NCBI GenBank assembly: GCA_023246755.1
Contig: JAHFHU010000004.1
Coordinates: forward strand, 4,214 to 68,213
Direction of reading: 5' to 3'
DNA length: 64,000 nucleotides
DNA from: Candidatus Magasanikiibacteriota bacterium
GTDB lineage: Bacteria; Patescibacteriota; Patescibacteriia; Magasanikbacterales; 2-02-FULL-50-9b
The notes under the pieces were generated by a model, which saw nothing but the letters and a program-made list of their open reading frames with translations, had not been told where the DNA came from and ran no database searches. This document shows, in pieces, positions 6,366 through 35,391 of this stretch. Numbering within the stretch: the first letter of the stretch is position 1; each line of letters starts with the position of its first letter. The position numbers were made by a program, and so were the translations under genes.

Positions 6366-6914
6366 ATGACTAAAAAATACACTCTCTTTGTCATTGGTGG
6401 AATTTTAATGTGTGGTGGCGCAGGATGTGCGTCCGAGGCAGCGCCGGCCCCCGCACCTGTTGCTGCACCTGCGCCAGCCGCTCTGATGCCGACGCCTGTT
6501 GTCGCTCTTCCAACGCCCACTGTCGAGACGCCGCCGCCCGCACCTACCGTCGACCAAGCCGACGGAGGAACACCTGTTACATCAATTTTTAAGGCGGGCG
6601 ACAAAGTCGTTGCGCGTTGGAATGGCGGAAATACGTGGTGGGATGCGCAGGTAACCAAGGCATCAGGAGATGAGGTTTTTGTTAAATATACCGATGGTTC
6701 GAGTCAAACGTTGCCACCACTCGACGTCGCACATCTGCATCAACCAAATAGTTCGGTCCATGTTGGCCAAGAAGTTCTTGCATTATGGAATGGTACATCA
6801 TATTACAGCGCCTTCATTAAGAAAATTACGGACACTGCGGTGACGGTAAAATGGAAAGATGGCAGCGGTGTCGCAGAATTGCCGTACGCAGCGATCGAAG
6901 TGCCGGGTAAATAA
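6366..6914 (+). CDS. lipoprotein with Pro/Ala-rich linker and two tandem Tudor/agenet-like (SH3-like barrel) repeats
   Basis: Lipobox LMCGGAGCAS. The linker APAPAPVAAPAPAALMPTPVVALPTPT. Two repeats: GDKVVARWNGGNTWWDAQVTKASGDEVFVKYTDGSSQTLP and GQEVLALWNGTSYYSAFIKKITDTAVTVKWKDGSGVAELP. Confidence 0.6.
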   Translation: MTKKYTLFVIGGILMCGGAGCASEAAPAPAPVAAPAPAALMPTPVVALPTPTVETPPPAPTVDQADGGTPVTSIFKAGDKVVARWNGGNTWWDAQVTKASGDEVFVKYTDGSSQTLPPLDVAHLHQPNSSVHVGQEVLALWNGTSYYSAFIKKITDTAVTVKWKDGSGVAELPYAAIEVPGK

Positions 6915-6999: not shown

Positions 7000-7725
7000 A
7001 TGCGGATGCTGGAGGCCCTCGTGAAGAATCTGTTTCATAATGCGATCATCGCGCGCTTGTTTTTGTTCGTGTTCATGCAGGTGTGTGCCTGCACGTGCGA
7101 CGATCATCTCGACCCTGACACCTACAACTGGAATTTTTCCGAATCAGTTTTTGTCGACTCACACCCCACCGAGTCTGACACATTCGTATATTTTGGATCT
7201 CCAGACTCTCAAACGTCTTTGCCGGTCACGTCGGTCGAAGCCGTCGATTTTGACCAAGACAACTTTCCTGCCGGCACTGATTGTGATGACGCGGACGACA
7301 CGGTTTATCCGGGAGCGTATGAGTACTGCGATTTCAAGGACAACGACTGCGACGGTGAAATCGACGAAACATGGAAGATCATCTGGCCAGAATTCTACGG
7401 CATGTCGTGCAAAGTTATCGCCGACAACGACTGCGTGAGTTACGGCACGTGGGTCTGTGACATGGATCATGATTGGTTGGTGTGCTCGGCCCCACCGGTA
7501 CGCCAAGCAATTGTCGAAAAATGCAATGGACTCGACGACGATTGCAACGGCATCACGGACACCGACCGGTGGCCGGAATTAGGAACCGCGTGTTCCATCG
7601 TGGCCGACGCCTGCGTGATGACGGGTGTCTGGAAGTGTTCAGATTACGGCGAGGCGATTCAATGCAGCGCCGAAGATTTAGTGCCGCCAAAAAATTGTGT
7701 TGCGACGCAAAAAAAGAGTAAATAA
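7000..7725 (+). CDS. secreted Cys-rich protein with MopE-type putative metal-binding repeats (DCDDxDxxxxPGAxExCDxxDNDCDGxxDE)
   Basis: Motif DCDDADDTVYPGAYEYCDFKDNDCDGEIDE and a second degenerate copy EKCNGLDDDCNGITDTD. 20 Cys in 241 aa. Hydrophobic N-terminus. Terminator follows. Confidence 0.55.
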   Translation: MRMLEALVKNLFHNAIIARLFLFVFMQVCACTCDDHLDPDTYNWNFSESVFVDSHPTESDTFVYFGSPDSQTSLPVTSVEAVDFDQDNFPAGTDCDDADDTVYPGAYEYCDFKDNDCDGEIDETWKIIWPEFYGMSCKVIADNDCVSYGTWVCDMDHDWLVCSAPPVRQAIVEKCNGLDDDCNGITDTDRWPELGTACSIVADACVMTGVWKCSDYGEAIQCSAEDLVPPKNCVATQKKSK

Positions 7726-8676: not shown

Positions 8677-8815
8677 AAGCGTCAAAAATCAAGACTAATT
8701 TGTCAAAAAATGTGAATGCTGGTAAGGTTTATTGAGTTCCCTCAACAACCACACGCAACAGTCCCTGTTCGCCACGCCCCTTGTGCGTGCGATTAGTCCT
8801 GTGGAGAAGAAAATA

Positions 8816-9043
8816 ATGAACAAATACGAAGGCTTCACAGAAGTCGTTTCTGGTCGCGCAGATGAAACATGGCAAGCAGTTCTCAAGACACCATTGATCG
8901 GCGATCCCGCTGAAGTTGGCCGCATCGTTCACGGCCGCCACATCGCAAACGCGCAGCCTGCGCAACCAGATGAGGTTCCTCAACCCCCACAATGCTGCAG
9001 CGATCAGCCCGCCTCGCCCATGCGAGGACGTTCAGGAGGCTAG
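8816..9043 (+). CDS. small hypothetical protein (about 75 aa)
   Basis: ATG at 8816 preceded by ggagaag. Coding-like composition. Followed by a strong terminator at 9102-9139. No homology recognised. Confidence 0.3.
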   Translation: MNKYEGFTEVVSGRADETWQAVLKTPLIGDPAEVGRIVHGRHIANAQPAQPDEVPQPPQCCSDQPASPMRGRSGG

Positions 9044-9101
9044 CCGCATTTCAAAGGTACTTCGATCAGTTGTCTGCACTTGTGAAAAACAGGTAGAGAC
9101 G

Positions 9102-9139
9102 GCGATGCCAGCACCACGCTGGCATCGCTCATTTTTTTA
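9102..9139 (+). terminator. Rho-independent terminator
   Basis: gcgatgccagc-accac-gctggcatcgc forms an 11-bp perfect stem, followed by tcattttttta. Confidence 0.75.
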
Positions 9140-9236
9140 TAAAACTTTGACGAAGCATTCAACACTTTTTCCCCGGCACATAAACTTTATTAAAATACCA
9201 ACGAAGTTCAGGCATTTCCTGCGATATGGTAATTTA

Positions 9237-10466
9237 TTAAATGCCAAGTGCGCGATATAACTTCTCTATTTTTTCCTGTGCTCGCATGTGCAACTTGTCA
9301 ACTATTTTGGCGCTTTTAAGTAGTTTTTGAAAAAACTCTTCTGCGTTCATCTCAGAATGCTCACGATAAAATTTAGGAAATTCATCAACAAAACGAGCAG
9401 CATCTGGATCACGAACAACACCTGTTTTTGCAAGTGTTGTTCGTATTTCTTCATCACTCATCGTGGTTTTTAGATCCTCAAAGCCTTTTTTTATAGTGGG
9501 TGCGTAGCGCTGTAAAATCCGTTCGGGTTCATTTTTAAAAACACCATCAAGCATAAGTATATCAGCCGCTGTCAAATGCTCTTTTAAGAGCGTAATGTCT
9601 GTCAAATCATAGTTACGTCCTGTTTCGATCTTATGGTAAGCAACTAACGCAGGATGCGAAAGATTTACGAGTCGACCACTTGTGGTTGTATATATGCGCC
9701 CGTGAGCAAAATATTCTGCGGGAAACGTTGTGCCGCTGTAAGGAATGGTTTTTGTGCCGTCTTCATTTGATACGATAATATGGAGATCAATAAAATTCAA
9801 TTTATCGTGCTCATTATTTATCATCCCATTAGGATTGATCCGTGCAATTTGCAGTTCACTCAAAGCACGCTCTGCAATCTCGACAGCAGATACAACCTCA
9901 ACACACCGCTGCGTCTCTGTGTAACGAGTACGGTCAGAAAAAATAATTGTGTACCCACGAGTTGCCAACTGTTTTTCTAATGCGGGCAAATTTTCAACAG
10001 AAATACTCATGTCAACATCCTTGTGATCACGAATGAATGAGCCGTCACCTTGTAAAAGTGAAATATTAATTGCGCCATCAAGCCACCAACCGAATTCAGC
10101 CCCTTCCATCAGTTCTCCTAAATCATTCAAACGTTTTTCAATTTCAATTTTTCGTTCTGTGGTTGGTCCCTGATATTTTTTTATTGTTTCATCAAAATTC
10201 GCACCGCTAAAATCATCAAATTTTTTAAGAAACTGGGTTTTAAAGTTCTGTCCCGAATGCTCCAAGGCACGCCGCACACGTTCAGAATTTGCTTGTTCGG
10301 ATAAACCTACCGGATCAATTTGCACAACACTCTCAACGGCTTCGACTTCACTAGCTATTCCATCAAAATTTTTTGGATCCTGTGTCATATAATAAAACAA
10401 AATATTTGTGTCATCGTACGCTCTACACCCCAATTTTCCAAACCCCCTTCTCCAAAAATGCTTCAA
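9237..10466 (-). CDS. nucleotidyltransferase-fold protein with ANT(2'')/Lnu-like core domain flanked by N- and C-terminal extensions; start codon uncertain (10466 or an internal ATG near 10390)
   Basis: Central segment FGWWLDGAINISLLQGDGSFIRDHKDVDMSI parallels the ANT(2'')-Ia region W-I-GGGWAIDARLG...RKHDDIDL (Gly-rich nucleotide loop plus the h-D-h-D metal motif). Lies immediately downstream of the Fic gene in the same orientation. Confidence 0.55.
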   Translation of the reverse strand: MKHFWRRGFGKLGCRAYDDTNILFYYMTQDPKNFDGIASEVEAVESVVQIDPVGLSEQANSERVRRALEHSGQNFKTQFLKKFDDFSGANFDETIKKYQGPTTERKIEIEKRLNDLGELMEGAEFGWWLDGAINISLLQGDGSFIRDHKDVDMSISVENLPALEKQLATRGYTIIFSDRTRYTETQRCVEVVSAVEIAERALSELQIARINPNGMINNEHDKLNFIDLHIIVSNEDGTKTIPYSGTTFPAEYFAHGRIYTTTSGRLVNLSHPALVAYHKIETGRNYDLTDITLLKEHLTAADILMLDGVFKNEPERILQRYAPTIKKGFEDLKTTMSDEEIRTTLAKTGVVRDPDAARFVDEFPKFYREHSEMNAEEFFQKLLKSAKIVDKLHMRAQEKIEKLYRALGI

Positions 10467-11295
10467 TGGTTTGACGATGCGCTTTGTTGATCAAGTTGGA
10501 ATGAGAAATTTTTTGTATTTTTGCAAAATCAACAAGTGTTATGATTTTTTTGCCTTCCAAATAGGCGAGCCGCTTATGGTAACTATTTGTTAGTGCTTTA
10601 CCAACAATTTCTTCCATAATCGTGGTCATGCCTCCTTGATCAAACTCCTTAAACGCATCATAATATTTTGTTCGATCAATAAATTTGATATTGATCGGCA
10701 CAAATCCCTCTCGGATCAGCTGGTAGTTATTAATCACGCGCCCAATACGACCATTCCCGTCGTTGAAGGGATGCAGATTTTCAAAAGTGAGGTGCAATTG
10801 CGCAATACGTTTAACAATGTTTTCATGCGCGCTGGCATGATACTGCGAAAACATTTTTACAAGACCGCTTTCAATTTCTTTTGGGGCCGGTGCAATGTGA
10901 CTACCAACACGAACAAATTCATTGCCGCGACGAAATCGCCCCGCAATATCATCCTGAATGTTTGAAATGAGCATTTTGTGGAGTGACAAAAGTGTGTCAG
11001 AATTCAACTCCTGCTCCTTGGCGCGTTTTTCAATATACGAAACGACGCGTGCCAAATTTTTTGCTTCAAATAATTCGCGCTCCGAAATATACCGATCCAA
11101 ATCAATTTGCAACAAAATCTTTTCGGTTTCTTCGAGCGTCAGCGTGCTATTTTCAATTGCATTCGAGTTATATACCTGTTCGGAAACTTCCGCCTCGCTC
11201 ACCAGTGCAATAAGCGCCTCTTTTCCAGCAGCCGCACGGTAATACCGCTCTCGCAATGCATTGATTTTATTAAAAACTGCAGAAATTTTTGCCAT
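10423..11295 (-). CDS. fic: Fic family protein (AMPylase) with N-terminal inhibitory helix and C-terminal winged-helix DNA-binding domain
   Basis: Fic motif HPFNDGNGRIGR. Inhibitory motif SNAIEN matching [ST]xxxE[GN] at residues about 50-55, as in class II Fic. C-terminal ITLVDFAKIQKISHSNLINKAHRQTIEAFLEKGV is wHTH-like. I prefer ATG at 11295 (MAKISAV...) over the upstream GTG at 11319. Confidence 0.8.
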   Translation of the reverse strand: MAKISAVFNKINALRERYYRAAAGKEALIALVSEAEVSEQVYNSNAIENSTLTLEETEKILLQIDLDRYISERELFEAKNLARVVSYIEKRAKEQELNSDTLLSLHKMLISNIQDDIAGRFRRGNEFVRVGSHIAPAPKEIESGLVKMFSQYHASAHENIVKRIAQLHLTFENLHPFNDGNGRIGRVINNYQLIREGFVPINIKFIDRTKYYDAFKEFDQGGMTTIMEEIVGKALTNSYHKRLAYLEGKKIITLVDFAKIQKISHSNLINKAHRQTIEAFLEKGVWKIGV

Positions 11296-11376
11296 ATGTC
11301 TTAGTATAGCAGTTTTCACGGTTTTGTCAATATAATCGTGAAAAACTAGAAATTAATGACATTTTTCACGGTTTTG
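11296..11376 (-). promoter_or_regulatory. sigma70-type promoter of fic (-35 TTGACA at 11325-11330, -10 TATACT at 11303-11308, 16-nt spacer) embedded in an array of TTTTCACG operator-like repeats
   Basis: Minus-strand read: TTGACAaaaccgtgaaaactgcTATACTaagacATATG. The 14-mer ttttcacggttttg is exact at 11313-11326 and 11363-11376. An inverted copy cgtgaaaa sits at 11337-11344. The start codon is only about 7 nt after the -10 element, implying a leaderless mRNA. Confidence 0.6.
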
Positions 11377-11379
11377 GCC

Positions 11380-12297
11380 CTACCCACCACAAAGCAGCCG
11401 ATGAATCTGTTTTCTTTGTGTCAAAGGAACGACAACAAAGTTATCAGCTTCTTCTAAAATTTCATGAAAAAACGGTTTAATGATTGTGGAAAACCATGCC
11501 GCGTTGTTTGAGTACAAAATTGATGTACCTGAATCAATATCTGCAATATTTACCAAACAGTTATAGTTCGGGTATTTTTTAAAATATTCATCAATCTGTT
11601 GTTTGAATGTATGAAAAAAAACTTTCCCATCGCTCAACATTTCAAATTGAGAAAAAACCAAATTCAGATCATTAAAAATTTTGGTATCGTTTTGCATGGT
11701 CTCATTAAATTTTAGTGCGAGCTCTTCTGCCATGTCAGCGTAATAGCGTTGCTGCCAGTTCGTCGGCAAATTAGTACGCTCGCCCAATTGCTCAAACGCA
11801 ATTCTATCTCGATCAACTGTTTCACCAGATTTAAAATTAAGTGTATTTTGAAGTATTGCAAAGGACAACAAATTTGCAGCTTCAGACAATATTTGTTTTT
11901 CAAAACCACGTTTTTCATACTCTTCCCAAATCAATGTTGCTGCAGCACCAACTCGTTCGATGTGAGCATTTTTTCCAATACGTGTTTCCCAAAACGCTTC
12001 CCATCCGTAATGGTGATCAAAAATTTCATGTACTCGAGTAGTCCCTTCCGTGTAATATGCAAACTGATGTGGATCCGATATATCCACGTAAATAAATTGA
12101 TCGTCAGGCTGCGCCTCGTAGATTATTTTAAAATCAGTTGTTTGCTCGCGCACAAATTGCGACACACTATGATTAAGCGGCCCCTCAAATACTGCAAGCG
12201 CCTGCTTCCCCTCCAATCTCAAAAGTTGTGCGTACGCAACCGCGCACGCAAAGGCATCGATGTCATTAAAAGCTTTTCCTGCGGTTACAATAAACAT
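11380..12297 (-). CDS. DHH family phosphoesterase (family II inorganic pyrophosphatase-like)
   Basis: N-terminal FNDIDAFACAVAYAQL (DxD), then YVDISDPHQ and IFDHHYG (DHH motif). Order and spacing as in the PpaC/DHH superfamily. Confidence 0.65.
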   Translation of the reverse strand: MFIVTAGKAFNDIDAFACAVAYAQLLRLEGKQALAVFEGPLNHSVSQFVREQTTDFKIIYEAQPDDQFIYVDISDPHQFAYYTEGTTRVHEIFDHHYGWEAFWETRIGKNAHIERVGAAATLIWEEYEKRGFEKQILSEAANLLSFAILQNTLNFKSGETVDRDRIAFEQLGERTNLPTNWQQRYYADMAEELALKFNETMQNDTKIFNDLNLVFSQFEMLSDGKVFFHTFKQQIDEYFKKYPNYNCLVNIADIDSGTSILYSNNAAWFSTIIKPFFHEILEEADNFVVVPLTQRKQIHRLLCGG

Positions 12298-17285: not shown

Positions 17286-17359
17286 TGGCACGGGCGGATG
17301 GAATCGAACCAACGCCAAAGGTTTTGGAGACCTTCGTTCTACCATTAAACTACGCCCGC
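17286..17359 (-). tRNA. tRNA-Trp (anticodon CCA)
   Basis: Reverse complement GCGGGCGTAGTTTAATGGTAGAACGAAGGTCTCCAAAACCTTTGGCGTTGGTTCGATTCCATCCGCCCGTGCCA. 7-bp acceptor stem (one G-U pair), anticodon loop CTCCAAA, T-loop GTTCGATTC, encoded CCA. Confidence 0.85.
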
Positions 17360-17360
17360 A

Positions 17361-18191
17361 TTATTTTTTAACATCTTCTTGCGATGGCCCCGTCGGCGGC
17401 GCAAGGACACCCGCGAATCGGAGGCCGAGAGTACTGTACACGACTAACGCAATAACTTCAACTAGCGGCGCAGGGCCGATGCCGAAAATAATACACAGAC
17501 CCCACAAAACGAGCGGCCCGGTTATCGCGGCCATGTGCAGCGCGAGCGCATCGCGAAACGACATCTGATCGTGGTATACAAATCGCTGCATCACCATGGC
17601 GAGCACACTCCATACGGAAATAAGCAATGTCGAAAATACCACGCTGCTCACAAAAAAATAAAGAAAAATCATGATGGTCACAACCGTGATTGCGGCCGCT
17701 TCATGATCAACGACGATCCCGCGAACATCGTCGAGATTAAATTTAAAATCGCCTCCATCGCGCCACAACATGCGCTCAACTTCCATTTCTTTTTTGTCTG
17801 CACTGGGCTGCGTCGCCCGTGCCACTACAATTTCAAGCGCCTCTTTTGAAATAAAAACCTGCGCCTGTGCCGGACGTGTTGGCGTCGAACTCACCGTATC
17901 AACCATCAAAACGAAATCACCATCAACCAAAGAATATGGCTGATCGACGCCGCTCACGGAAAAATCAGCCCCCTTTTTTTCAATCGTCACCCCGCGTGGA
18001 ATTTGCGCAAGCTTGTGACCCGCTGACCGAACCACGTCCGTTATATCCGGCGTGAACGCTAACGCCAAAAAAAACGCGACAAAAATATGCAGCTGAAAAA
18101 AATAGGAAAACTTAAGCGGCTCGCGTCGAGCTCCCGCGAGTGCCTGAATATTTGCAATGTACCCACGAAACTGACGTGGAAATTGCATCAT
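17361..18191 (-). CDS. hypothetical integral membrane protein
   Basis: 276-aa ORF with hydrophobic N-terminal segment and 4-5 C-terminal TM helices. Sits between rpmG and tRNA-Trp, where secE-nusG is found in many bacteria. Confidence 0.45.
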   Translation of the reverse strand: MMQFPRQFRGYIANIQALAGARREPLKFSYFFQLHIFVAFFLALAFTPDITDVVRSAGHKLAQIPRGVTIEKKGADFSVSGVDQPYSLVDGDFVLMVDTVSSTPTRPAQAQVFISKEALEIVVARATQPSADKKEMEVERMLWRDGGDFKFNLDDVRGIVVDHEAAAITVVTIMIFLYFFVSSVVFSTLLISVWSVLAMVMQRFVYHDQMSFRDALALHMAAITGPLVLWGLCIIFGIGPAPLVEVIALVVYSTLGLRFAGVLAPPTGPSQEDVKK

Positions 18192-18200
18192 ACGAAACGG

Positions 18201-18356
18201 CTATTTCGTTTCCTTGTGCGGCGTGTGCTTTGCGCAATACTTGCACAACTTTTTGAGCTCGAGACGATTTTTGAGCTTTTTCTTATTGCGTGATGTGTAG
18301 TGCGTAACGCGCTTGCAGACCGTGCATTCCATTTTGGCGAGATTGTCTTGTGACAT
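18201..18356 (-). CDS. rpmG: 50S ribosomal protein L33
   Basis: Not in the ORF track (51 aa). Translation MSQDNLAKMECTVCKRVTHYTSRNKKKLKNRLELKKLCKYCAKHTPHKETK has CxxC...CxxC zinc ribbon and the KETK C-terminus typical of L33. Confidence 0.85.
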   Translation of the reverse strand: MSQDNLAKMECTVCKRVTHYTSRNKKKLKNRLELKKLCKYCAKHTPHKETK

Positions 18357-18361
18357 AGTAG

Positions 18362-18622
18362 TTAATATATTTCTGTATAATCTTTTGCGAAATGTACTTT
18401 TGTGTGTTGATTGTTTTTCGGGACAGCAACCCGTAAATTAATGACACACTTTTCTTTTGCTTCCTCGATCGAAACGAAGAAAATCATCTGACTCATCGGA
18501 TCATAAACCGCAAAGTAATCGATCTCTTCTGCAGCACCCGCCAACCCTTGCGCATCAAACACGTTGCAACAGCTAATTCTCCTATCGCACCCTTCTCCTT
18601 TTTGTGCATAGAACCCATCCAT
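18362..18622 (-). CDS. hypothetical small protein (86 aa), 5 nt upstream of rpmG
   Basis: ORF only. No TM (so not SecE). Placement suggests co-transcription with rpmG. Confidence 0.3.
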   Translation of the reverse strand: MDGFYAQKGEGCDRRISCCNVFDAQGLAGAAEEIDYFAVYDPMSQMIFFVSIEEAKEKCVINLRVAVPKNNQHTKVHFAKDYTEIY

Positions 18623-18637
18623 TAATTTTGCTTCGAA

Positions 18638-18709
18638 AGCCGAAGGTGGGATTCGAACCCACGGTCTACGGTTTACAAAACCGTTGCATTACCGCTATGC
18701 TACTTCGGC
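18638..18709 (-). tRNA. tRNA-Thr (anticodon UGU)
   Basis: Reverse complement GCCGAAGTAGCATAGCGGTAATGCAACGGTTTTGTAAACCGTAGACCGTGGGTTCGAATCCCACCTTCGGCT. Anticodon loop TTTGTAA, T-loop TTCGAAT. CCA not encoded. Confidence 0.8.
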
Positions 18710-18789
18710 ATTTTACTTGCACATAGTATCATAGAACTCCCCATTTGGTCAATATAAAGTAGATCCACCCGCGTCGCTACTCAAACAAA

Positions 18790-18822
18790 TCAAAAATTAC
18801 CACCCCTTCGGGTGGTAATTTT
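18790..18822 (-). terminator. palindromic hairpin / terminator downstream of the minus-strand tRNA cluster
   Basis: aattaccaccc-cttcg-ggtggtaatt forms a perfect 11-bp stem, with T/A-rich flanks on both sides. Confidence 0.5.
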
Positions 18823-18825
18823 GTT

Positions 18826-18908
18826 TGGGTGGAGAAGGATTCGAACCTTCGAAGGCGAAAGCCAACAGATTTACAGTCTGCCGTGTTTGACCGCTTCACT
18901 ATCCACCC
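18826..18908 (-). tRNA. tRNA-Tyr (anticodon GUA), long variable arm
   Basis: Reverse complement GGGTGGATAGTGAAGCGGTCAAACACGGCAGACTGTAAATCTGTTGGCTTTCGCCTTCGAAGGTTCGAATCCTTCTCCACCCA. Anticodon loop CTGTAAA, class II variable arm. Confidence 0.8.
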
Positions 18909-19071
18909 ACATTTAATTTTTCTGTGGTTTCTGGTTATTTTTTGTGAGACTGCGCAGGCGCTGCGGGCCAGTGTCGCGCAGAGCGCGACGAGCAGCGCCG
19001 AGGAAGTTCTGAAATTTCTGCTGAGAAATTTCAGGTTGGTCTCACAAAAAATAACCAGAAACAGACACTGG
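18909..19071 (-). ncRNA. GC-rich highly structured spacer between tRNA-Thr(GGU) and tRNA-Tyr; candidate small RNA or processing element of unknown class
   Basis: 24-bp perfect long-range stem (gtttctggttattttttgtgagac at 18924-18947 pairs with gtctcacaaaaaataaccagaaac at 19038-19061) closes an 88-nt GC-rich interior. The interior holds nested hairpins gcgctgc..[gtcgcgc-aga-gcgcgac]..gcagcgc and ctgaaatttc-tgctga-gaaatttcag. Confidence 0.3.
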
Positions 19072-19144
19072 AGCCGTTGATCGGATTTGAACCGATGACC
19101 TACTCCTTACCATGGAGTTGCTCTACCAACTGAGCTACAACGGC
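19072..19144 (-). tRNA. tRNA-Thr (anticodon GGU)
   Basis: Reverse complement GCCGTTGTAGCTCAGTTGGTAGAGCAACTCCATGGTAAGGAGTAGGTCATCGGTTCAAATCCGATCAACGGCT. Anticodon loop ATGGTAA. Confidence 0.8.
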
Positions 19145-34669: not shown

Positions 34670-35191
34670 TTATTGTGCTTTCTTTTCTTGAACCTGACTC
34701 AAGGCGGTAACAAAACCGCGTGTGATACCTGACAATGTCGTAACCAAACCAACACGCGGCGCATTGAGCACCTGTGCGAGCTGAGCGAGTAACTGCTGCT
34801 TGCTTGGAAGTGCGGCGAGCGCCTTAACTTGCGCTGCGTCGATGAAGCGACCCTCAAGAGTTCCGCCCACGATTTTAACCTGTTCAACCTCTTTGCTCAT
34901 GAGCGCAATGACGTTTGCTGCACCAACTTCGTCGGCACCGAATGCGACGGCGATGTTGCCATCGATCTCTTTTGTGTTCAGCTCAAAGCCAGCTGCGCGT
35001 GCCGCTAAATTGATCAACGTCTTTTTTGCGACCATGTATCCAACGCCAGATTTCTCAGCCGTTCGGCGAAGTTTATTGACGTTTTTTACGGTGATTCCTT
35101 TATAATCAACGAAAACCGAGCTTTTTGATGCCTTAAAGGCATCTGTCAAGCGAGCGAGATCTGCTGATTTTTGTGCTTTTGTTTTTGCCAT
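34670..35191 (-). CDS. rplJ: 50S ribosomal protein L10
   Basis: Start at MAKTKAQKSADLARLTDAFKASKSSVFVDYKGITV (ATG is the reverse complement of cat at 35189-35191). The longer ORF N-terminus is non-homologous. Followed by rplL. Confidence 0.85.
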   Translation of the reverse strand: MAKTKAQKSADLARLTDAFKASKSSVFVDYKGITVKNVNKLRRTAEKSGVGYMVAKKTLINLAARAAGFELNTKEIDGNIAVAFGADEVGAANVIALMSKEVEQVKIVGGTLEGRFIDAAQVKALAALPSKQQLLAQLAQVLNAPRVGLVTTLSGITRGFVTALSQVQEKKAQ

Positions 35192-35330
35192 ACAAAAAAT
35201 TACGGCTATCAACCGTAAACAATTAAGGGCCCTCGACCTGAAATTCCTGCGTATTCGCAAGAATTAAGTGGGCGACCTCGGCAGGATTTATTGGAATTTT
35301 TGATACCAAACCTGCTGTCTACGGTAGTTG
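35192..35330 (-). promoter_or_regulatory. rplJ 5' leader (probable L10 autoregulatory leader)
   Basis: About 140-nt untranslated region upstream of rplJ, with several short complementary segments (e.g. caaccgtaaac and ctacggtagttgg) that could pair. No other coding potential. Conserved location of the L10(L12)4-binding leader. Confidence 0.4.
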
Positions 35331-35391
35331 GACTATTGTAATAAATCGGGGCACGCTTGTCAAGCGATTGGGGCGTACTCGTCAAAATTGT

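Follow-up and report, generated by a model that had tools for sequence, protein, structure and literature searches.

A conserved Fic cassette and a rare nucleotidyltransferase-fold gene are juxtaposed in a probable Patescibacteria genome

The window analysed here is a 64-kb stretch of contig JAHFHU010000004.1, from a genome that is probably a member of the Patescibacteria (Candidate Phyla Radiation, CPR), in which two genes lie side by side on the minus strand, the upstream one encoding a Fic protein and the downstream one a protein with a nucleotidyltransferase (NTase) fold. A sequence-only reading of this DNA had proposed that the two enzymes form a two-component modification system, either as a toxin/immunity or defence-type pair or by sequential nucleotidylation of a common target. 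This proposal did not hold, as the pair does not co-occur in relatives. In our comparisons the Fic-NTase pair was specific to the window genome, which indicates that a conserved Fic cassette and a rare accessory NTase gene have simply come to lie next to each other here. We consider it probable that the two genes are functionally independent and have become neighbours by chance in this genome. The two genes are:

10423 to 11295, minus strand: gene of the Fic protein, a class II-type Fic/AMPylase of 290 residues with an ATG start, recognised by PF02661, PADLOC and PDB matches.
9237 to 10388, minus strand: gene of the NTase-fold protein, 383 residues with an ATG start, a member of a small family of CPR and DPANN organisms related to LnuA and ANT(2'').

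To compare gene neighbourhoods on the NTase side, we used 44 loci (10 from genomes and 34 from metagenomes) found with a 16-sequence alignment, together with the contexts of the closest homologues; L007, L008 and L009 are identical DNA from the same organism and add no independent information. None of the approximately 35 independent NTase loci carries a Fic gene of the window type within 6 kb. A six-frame scan of 6 kb on either side of the NTase gene detected a Fic motif only in the window, with its identical copies, and at L001/L020, and a Pfam census of 113 NTase-neighbouring proteins contained no Fic protein and included DNA methylases and other island-type genes. The Fic motif at L001 was rejected as a case of co-occurrence, because it belongs to a Doc-like RhuM/Fic protein (HPFVDGNKR) with no similarity to the window Fic beyond the motif; the gene lies 2.3 kb from the NTase gene, with four genes between them.

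The same picture was obtained from the Fic side, where seven independent loci were compared with the window and none of the seven has an NTase gene downstream of Fic. The downstream genes at these loci resemble neither the NTase gene nor one another:

L054: a hairpin and a convergent gene.
L055: a convergent gene.
L056: an ABC-F ATPase.
L058: a PLD nuclease, within an island that also carries a resolvase and an MmeI-type enzyme.
L060: a 62-residue open reading frame (ORF) and a MazG-like gene.
L063: a 94-residue ORF.
L066: a 259-residue SWIM-like protein.

The sister genome, L054, encodes a Fic protein 89% identical to that of the window, and at the nucleotide level the two loci are 83% identical across the EamA gene and 85% identical across the promoter and Fic gene together. 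Homology stops at window position 10424, which is the Fic stop codon, and the hairpin and convergent gene listed above follow in L054 instead. On the other side of Fic, the promoter is immediately preceded in the window by the gene of a DHH-family protein (11380 to 12297, minus strand), which bears a weak resemblance to family II inorganic pyrophosphatase (66 bits; cut-off 283). The slot between EamA and Fic in L054 holds an unrelated 311-residue protein in place of the DHH gene, and the genes downstream of Fic differ too, so that both flanks of Fic are variable. For the same reason, the DHH gene was rejected as a third member of a system in which it would remove pyrophosphate.

The conservation of Fic itself stands against this variability of its surroundings. 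The family has at least 8000 matches at E ≤ 1e-20, from a search in which 8000 candidates were scored; the best 120 of these are 79-89% identical, with Paceibacterota, Zambryskibacteria and other Patescibacteria as the named sources among these 120, and Fic remains about 80% identical across many Patescibacteria lineages. Nonsynonymous divergence (dN) between pairs of Fic genes ranges from 0.06 to 0.17, and synonymous divergence (dS) is saturated in all except the two closest pairs, which gave dN/dS values of about 0.06 (window against L054) and about 0.02 (L055 against L056). The combination of low dN and saturated dS argues for an old, strongly constrained gene and not for a recently spreading defence gene. 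These values point to a Fic cassette of great age that is strongly maintained by purifying selection throughout Patescibacteria. A gene with matches among anti-phage candidates would not usually be conserved to this degree.

We used profile and structure database searches to examine the Fic protein. Its reading frame (10423-11319) extends back to a GTG at 11319, and the true start is most likely the ATG at 11295, because about 120 close homologues share a length of about 290 residues. The protein matches PF02661 with 76 bits (cut-off 24), and its best sequence match in the PDB is human FICD (E 4e-18), with bacterial Fic structures matching to E 1e-10. The PADLOC profiles PDC-S04 (6e-34) and SoFic (2e-26) also match, whereas the score for the NCBIfam SoFic equivalog, 38.7 bits, is far below its cut-off of 550. 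Three parts of the protein matter for its assignment:

10738 to 10773, minus strand: active-site motif HPFNDGNGRIGR, residues 175-186, read from the sequence.
11149 to 11166, minus strand: inhibitory-helix motif SNAIEN, residues 44-49, ahead of the Fic core.
10426 to 10548, minus strand: the C-terminal stretch of about 41 residues, near-invariant among homologues, a candidate helix-turn-helix.

Class II Fic proteins carry an inhibitory (S/T)xxxE(G/N) helix in the same chain, ahead of the Fic core. In the window protein, HPFNDGNGRIGR fits the class II core pattern HxFx(D/E)GNGRxxR, and SNAIEN fits the inhibitory pattern and aligns with the inhibitory helix region of FICD; both motifs are invariant across 25 Fic homologues. 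By these two sequence features the protein belongs to the class II group, in agreement with the sequence-only reading, which had recognised both motifs, and it should be an AMPylase held in check by its own SNAIEN helix. The C-terminal tail (ITLVDFAKIQKISHSNLINKAHRQTIEAFLEKGVWKIG) resembles a short helix-turn-helix by eye and is almost invariant among homologues. The C-terminal winged helix described by the sequence-only reading was not confirmed: sequence searches with the last 70 residues gave no match in Pfam or the PDB, and the tail does not match the XRE profile. A low-confidence AlphaFold2 (AF2) model shows the tail as three short helices, at a predicted local distance difference test score (pLDDT) of 46 for Fic, obtained from a shallow alignment of sequences that are all about 80% identical.

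The stretch that separates the Fic start from the stop of the DHH-family gene (11380) contains the Fic promoter, which is near-consensus (TTGACA, 16 nt, TATACT with a preceding TG; 11/12 match) and has three CGTGAAAA boxes within 60 nt, laid out as direct, inverted and direct copies:

11303 to 11373, minus strand: Fic promoter, with the -35 element TTGACA at 11330-11325 and the -10 element TATACT at 11308-11303, 7 nt ahead of the ATG.
11363 to 11373, minus strand: first AAYCGTGAAAA box.
11334 to 11344, plus strand: second AAYCGTGAAAA box, inverted.
11313 to 11323, minus strand: third AAYCGTGAAAA box, between the -35 and -10 elements.

The three-box layout was found upstream of Fic in 8/8 independent loci (the window and the seven others), despite their differing flanking genes. 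The distance from the -10 element to the ATG across these loci is about 7-35 nt, mostly 7-14 nt, giving most of them a nearly leaderless look. Its conservation with Fic at every one of the eight loci assigns the three-box promoter to the Fic cassette and not to a Fic-NTase operon; the operator-rich promoter described by the earlier reading is thus present, with its boxes, but it is Fic's own. Following the SoFic precedent, we infer that Fic represses its own gene through binding of the near-invariant C-terminal tail to the boxes, autoregulation being the simplest reading.

The NTase reading frame (9237-10466) extends back to a TTG at 10466, which accounts for the 409 residues given earlier, but the true start is likely the ATG at 10388 (383 residues), because the two closest homologues (P0002 and P0003) start at the same MxxDPK. 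Its assignment to the ANT(2'')/Lnu fold was borne out by several searches. PF10706 matches with 42.1 bits, above the gathering cut-off of 21, over profile positions 5-75 of 149, which is the N-terminal half only, and 57/58 family members match it at E ≤ 0.01; the AbiEii family PF08843 is matched by 0/58. The family profile aligns with the LnuA structures 4WH5 and 4FO1 (E 4e-5) across LDG...R(D/E)H(K/R)D(V/I)D and the hDhH strand. Matches to several NCBIfam Lnu models (A/AN2/E/D) are weak, with 24.6 bits for Lnu(AN2) against a cut-off of 340 and 24 bits for Lnu(A) against 300, and PADLOC gave no match for the NTase. The parts of the protein are placed as follows:

9906 to 10121, minus strand: part matching PF10706, residues 90-161.
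10059 to 10076, minus strand: G105...S110 of LDGAINIS, within the PF10706 part.
10011 to 10019, minus strand: D124-V-D126, within the PF10706 part.
9786 to 9788, minus strand: D201, third catalytic carboxylate, on the IDLH strand, aligned with LDIH of LnuA.
9237 to 9653, minus strand: C-terminal all-helical domain, residues ~246-383, with invariant P246, K253, R258, D261 and D264.

The AF2 model of the NTase (pLDDT 82, predicted template modelling score 0.76) contains a disordered N-terminus (residues 1-33), a core (residues ~77-245) and a helical C-terminal domain (residues 246-381), so that the N- and C-terminal extensions noticed earlier were recovered, as about 75 residues at the N-terminus and a helical domain of about 135 residues at the C-terminus. 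Foldseek comparison of this model with the PDB returned MenT1 (8an5_B) as best match, with E 9.6e-5 and a template modelling (TM) score of 0.65 on the target, followed by LnuA (1.3e-4), ANT(2'')-Ia (1e-3) and also FKRP; about 200-220 NTase columns were aligned to targets of 158-195 residues. Comparison with viral models returned LicD/FKRP-type domains. The invariant positions across 58 family members are G105, S110, D124, D126, P246, K253, R258, D261 and D264, with D201 close to invariant, and this conservation of the catalytic residues suggests that the NTase is probably active as an enzyme.

The NTase family is small. A word-indexed search found 6 close homologues among 5.8 billion proteins, and an exhaustive profile search of 1.84 billion found 295 family representatives at E ≤ 1e-3 and 88 at E ≤ 1e-30. 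The 10 genome loci come from nine bacterial metagenome-assembled genomes, mostly labelled Saccharibacteria, Moraniibacteriota or Patescibacteria group and in three cases only uncultured bacteria, and from one Parvarchaeota archaeon. As far as these sequences indicate, the family is limited to CPR bacteria and one DPANN archaeon. Literature on Fic in Patescibacteria, on PF10706 and on CPR NTases yielded nothing on a Fic-NTase pair or on the NTase family.

The real conserved partner of the NTase family is an XRE gene and not Fic. The recurrent small protein encoded upstream of the NTase is of the XRE type (Pfam HTH_3). Judged with a hidden Markov model, about 16 of the 35 non-redundant loci that could be assessed have its ORF, of about 70 residues, ending 2-6 nt ahead of the NTase start; two further loci have the XRE ORF about 120 nt downstream.

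L011, L012, L025, L027, L029, L031-L035, L038, L040, L045 and L047: tight XRE-NTase bicistrons, with the XRE ORF 2-6 nt ahead.

A profile search of the whole 64-kb window found no homologue of this partner, and the clade nearest to the window NTase also has no XRE gene, its upstream genes being varied:

L001: a truncated AbiEii gene.
L004: a NUDIX gene.
L005: an IscS gene.
L021: a gene for a 196-residue protein.
The window: Fic.

The closest homologue of the window NTase (53% identity) is the one at L001, and directly before it a 58-residue ORF (L001 5818-5994) encodes an N-terminal fragment of an AbiEii-type NTase toxin (GGTAL...RLSDDLDFF). This fragment suggests turnover of toxin-like genes at that spot. 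A second recurrent feature of the family is a tRNA gene at most 1 kb upstream on the same strand, present in 12 loci (about a third) and encoding tRNA-Ala in nine, with both tgc and cgc anticodons.

L015, L016, L029, L034, L035, L040, L041 and L043, and also L010, L014, L026, L036 and L044: NTase or XRE-NTase directly after a tRNA gene.

One clade (L016, L034 and L041) carries 16S rRNA, tRNA-Ile, tRNA-Ala, XRE and NTase genes in this order. In these three loci the XRE-NTase module occupies the place where the 23S gene would normally come. No integrase was seen near the tRNA-adjacent loci. Some members of the family carry a fused uridine-kinase/PRK-like P-loop domain (two cases) or S-adenosylmethionine methyltransferase (proteins P0035, P0132 and P0087), a NUDIX gene lies directly upstream of the NTase at L004 and L017, and HIT and nucleoside hydrolase genes lie nearby at L001. 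These fusions and neighbours hint at a link of the family to nucleotide handling.

In the window, the Fic and NTase genes do not overlap, as had been allowed for, but the spacing given with it stands: with ATG starts assumed, 34 nt separate the Fic stop from the NTase start on the same strand. No ORF lies inside this gap, and a consensus scan of its minus strand called no promoter-like or terminator-like site, which suggests that the NTase is probably transcribed by read-through. The minus strand holds about four-fifths of the non-overlapping long ORFs in the window, so that the shared orientation of the two genes carries little information. Taken together, the locus would work as follows: Fic would be a self-contained cassette with its own promoter, boxes and class II enzyme, whose neighbours change from genome to genome and whose tail would bind the boxes and autorepress the gene; the NTase would occupy the variable slot behind it, with its XRE partner missing in this genome, and would probably be expressed by read-through from the Fic promoter.

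Some points weigh against this reading. The short gap and the lack of a terminator make it probable that Fic and NTase are co-expressed, and a functional link confined to this lineage could then exist. Of the thousands of Fic loci, only seven independent ones were compared, and a Fic-NTase arrangement may exist elsewhere in a minority of genomes. The NTase usually follows a DNA-binding partner and here follows a Fic with a possible DNA-binding tail, which could be more than coincidence. Concerning read-through, a weak 8/12 promoter-like site is seen by eye in the Fic 3' end (TTGGAA, 17 nt, TACGAT), and the NTase may be transcribed from it independently of Fic.

The proposal that Fic and the NTase form a dedicated two-enzyme module, whether as toxin and immunity protein, as a defence pair, in sequential nucleotidylation or as writer and eraser of AMPylation, could draw on the shared strand, the 34-nt gap behind a single strong promoter with no internal terminator, the intact catalytic motifs of both proteins, the match of Fic to the PADLOC defence candidates PDC-S04 and SoFic, and the precedent of AS1, a 47-residue antitoxin encoded downstream of E. 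coli SoFic (PMC12249575). We consider it very unlikely, as the pair is missing from about 35 NTase loci and from 7 Fic loci including the sister genome, the promoter is that of Fic only, PADLOC gave no match for the NTase, co-orientation is the default in a strand-biased genome, and a Fic with its own inhibitory helix does not need a separate antitoxin. An equally improbable variant takes the NTase as a member of an undescribed CPR/DPANN family of toxic or conflict NTases, restrained by XRE and located beside tRNA genes, notably tRNA-Ala, with Fic replacing XRE in the window; this replacement could act through the operator-controlled promoter and DNA-binding tail of Fic or through AMPylation of the NTase.

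Two further explanations concern the NTase, and we rate them about equally, both being compatible with an NTase that is not a partner of Fic. One possibility, held tentatively, is a small-molecule nucleotidyltransferase of the Lnu/ANT(2'') type, acting for example in antibiotic detoxification, or a LicD/FKRP-like transferase, regulated by XRE in relatives and unrelated to Fic. The sole significant sequence matches (PF10706, the Lnu(A/AN2/E/D) models and the LnuA structures) point this way, as do the ANT(2'')-Ia, FKRP and LicD-type domains among the fold matches and the nucleotide-handling neighbours and fusions (NUDIX twice, HIT, nucleoside hydrolase, uridine-kinase-like and methyltransferase). 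However, the scores are far under the resistance-gene cut-offs (24.6 bits against 340 for Lnu(AN2), for example), PF10706 is matched in its N-terminal half only, and the NTase has double the length of LnuA or ANT(2''), with a conserved helical domain that has no known counterpart. The other, also doubtful, is a toxic effector like MenT or AbiEii, which might nucleotidylate tRNA and would be restrained by XRE as antitoxin or controller protein, the window copy then being an orphan toxin that nothing but repression of the Fic promoter would silence. MenT1 as best Foldseek match (E 1e-4, TM 0.65), the XRE-NTase bicistrons with gaps of 2-6 nt in about half of the family, the position of the closest homologue directly behind a truncated AbiEii gene, the DNA methylases and other island-type genes nearby and the tRNA genes immediately upstream in about a third of the loci are consistent with it. 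Its sequence affinity is nevertheless with LnuA/ANT(2'') (57/58 members match PF10706 and 0/58 match PF08843), about half of the loci, including the whole clade nearest to the window copy, are without XRE, the 64-kb window holds no XRE homologue, and a 70-residue XRE protein fits a plain transcriptional regulator equally well.

Functional independence of the two genes thus remains the reading that we prefer. A ribosomal protein L10 leader at 35184-35342 (minus strand; Rfam, barely above the gathering score) and a cluster of four tRNA genes (Trp, Thr, Tyr and Thr) at 17286-19144 (minus strand) mark the window as ordinary chromosome. GC skew is negative across its whole length, and the minus strand carries about 80% of the genes. 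No direct repeats of the kind that mark insertion of a mobile element flank the NTase gene. About 540 nt (8695-9236) separate a gene of 280 residues from the NTase stop and contain only doubtful ORFs, one of which, a plus-strand ORF of 103 residues, has been annotated as a gene in a different assembly of this organism. The region also contains a hairpin:

9101 to 9129, no strand assigned: G+C-rich 12-bp hairpin about 110 nt past the NTase stop, with a T-run on the plus-strand side only.

This hairpin, a strong terminator on the plus strand, likely marks the end of the converging plus-strand unit and possibly also ends the Fic-NTase transcript. Further away, two plus-strand genes have products unusual in a bacterium: a probable lipoprotein that contains two Tudor/Agenet/SH3-like repeats (6366-6914) and a Cys- and Asp-rich protein with MopE-type metal-binding motifs (7000-7725).

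The finding proposed for this locus was a new two-enzyme modification system, and the evidence against it spares a pursuit in the wet laboratory. Two incidental results are of greater interest than the hypothesis that prompted the analysis. One is the Patescibacteria Fic cassette, three-box promoter and gene, which is conserved at levels like those of ribosomal proteins in very different neighbourhoods and hints at an important, unexplained cellular role of AMPylation in these reduced symbionts. The other is the XRE-NTase module, uncharacterised, specific to CPR bacteria and a DPANN archaeon and often located just after tRNA-Ala, which could be a new toxin-antitoxin-like or resistance-like element. 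To our knowledge, almost no such biology has been described for CPR/DPANN organisms.

Compared to known systems, the window Fic shares with the class II proteins FICD/HYPE, SoFic of Shewanella oneidensis and PDC-S04 the active-site pattern and the N-terminal inhibitory motif in one chain, and for a Fic with a DNA-binding tail there is a precedent in the SoFic structure 3EQX, which entered the PDB as a 'Fic domain containing transcriptional regulator'. With 290 residues against about 370 in SoFic, and 38.7 bits against 550, it resembles PDC-S04 and SoFic but is not a SoFic equivalog. PDC-S04 is an unverified defence candidate, for which one test in a native host showed no defence activity. A further difference from the PDC-S04 and SoFic candidates is that the window Fic keeps about 80% identity throughout Patescibacteria, with dS at saturation, a pattern not usual in defence genes. 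The E. coli SoFic-AS1 toxin-antitoxin pair, in which the 47-residue antitoxin AS1 is encoded downstream of Fic (PMC12249575), is similar in that a Fic gene is followed by a second gene on the same strand. In the window, however, this second gene encodes a 383-residue enzyme, the 34-nt gap holds no small ORF, and no downstream gene is conserved at the 7 homologous Fic loci. If Fic were to AMPylate the NTase, the arrangement would resemble a type VII toxin-antitoxin system, where chemical modification by the enzyme encoded upstream neutralises its downstream neighbour.

The NTase resembles MenT1 and AbiEii of the MenAT and AbiE systems in its best structural match and in the order of a small DNA-binding gene followed by an NTase gene in about half of the family. 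It differs from them in having no PF08843 match and in its partner, a 70-residue XRE protein that is neither AbiEi nor MenA, and no XRE, AbiEi or MenA-like gene lies in the window. With LnuA and ANT(2'')-Ia it shares the motif (W/Y)-x-LDG...R-(D/E)-H-(K/R)-D-(V/I)-D, a third Asp on the hDhH strand and the fold (Foldseek E 1e-4 to 1e-3). In contrast to these enzymes, its family is restricted to CPR bacteria and a DPANN archaeon and is usually partnered by XRE. At 383 residues, the window NTase also goes well beyond the compact two-domain proteins of 160-180 residues, adding an insertion in the core, an N-terminal extension of about 75 residues and a helical C-terminal domain of about 135 residues with invariant residues of its own.

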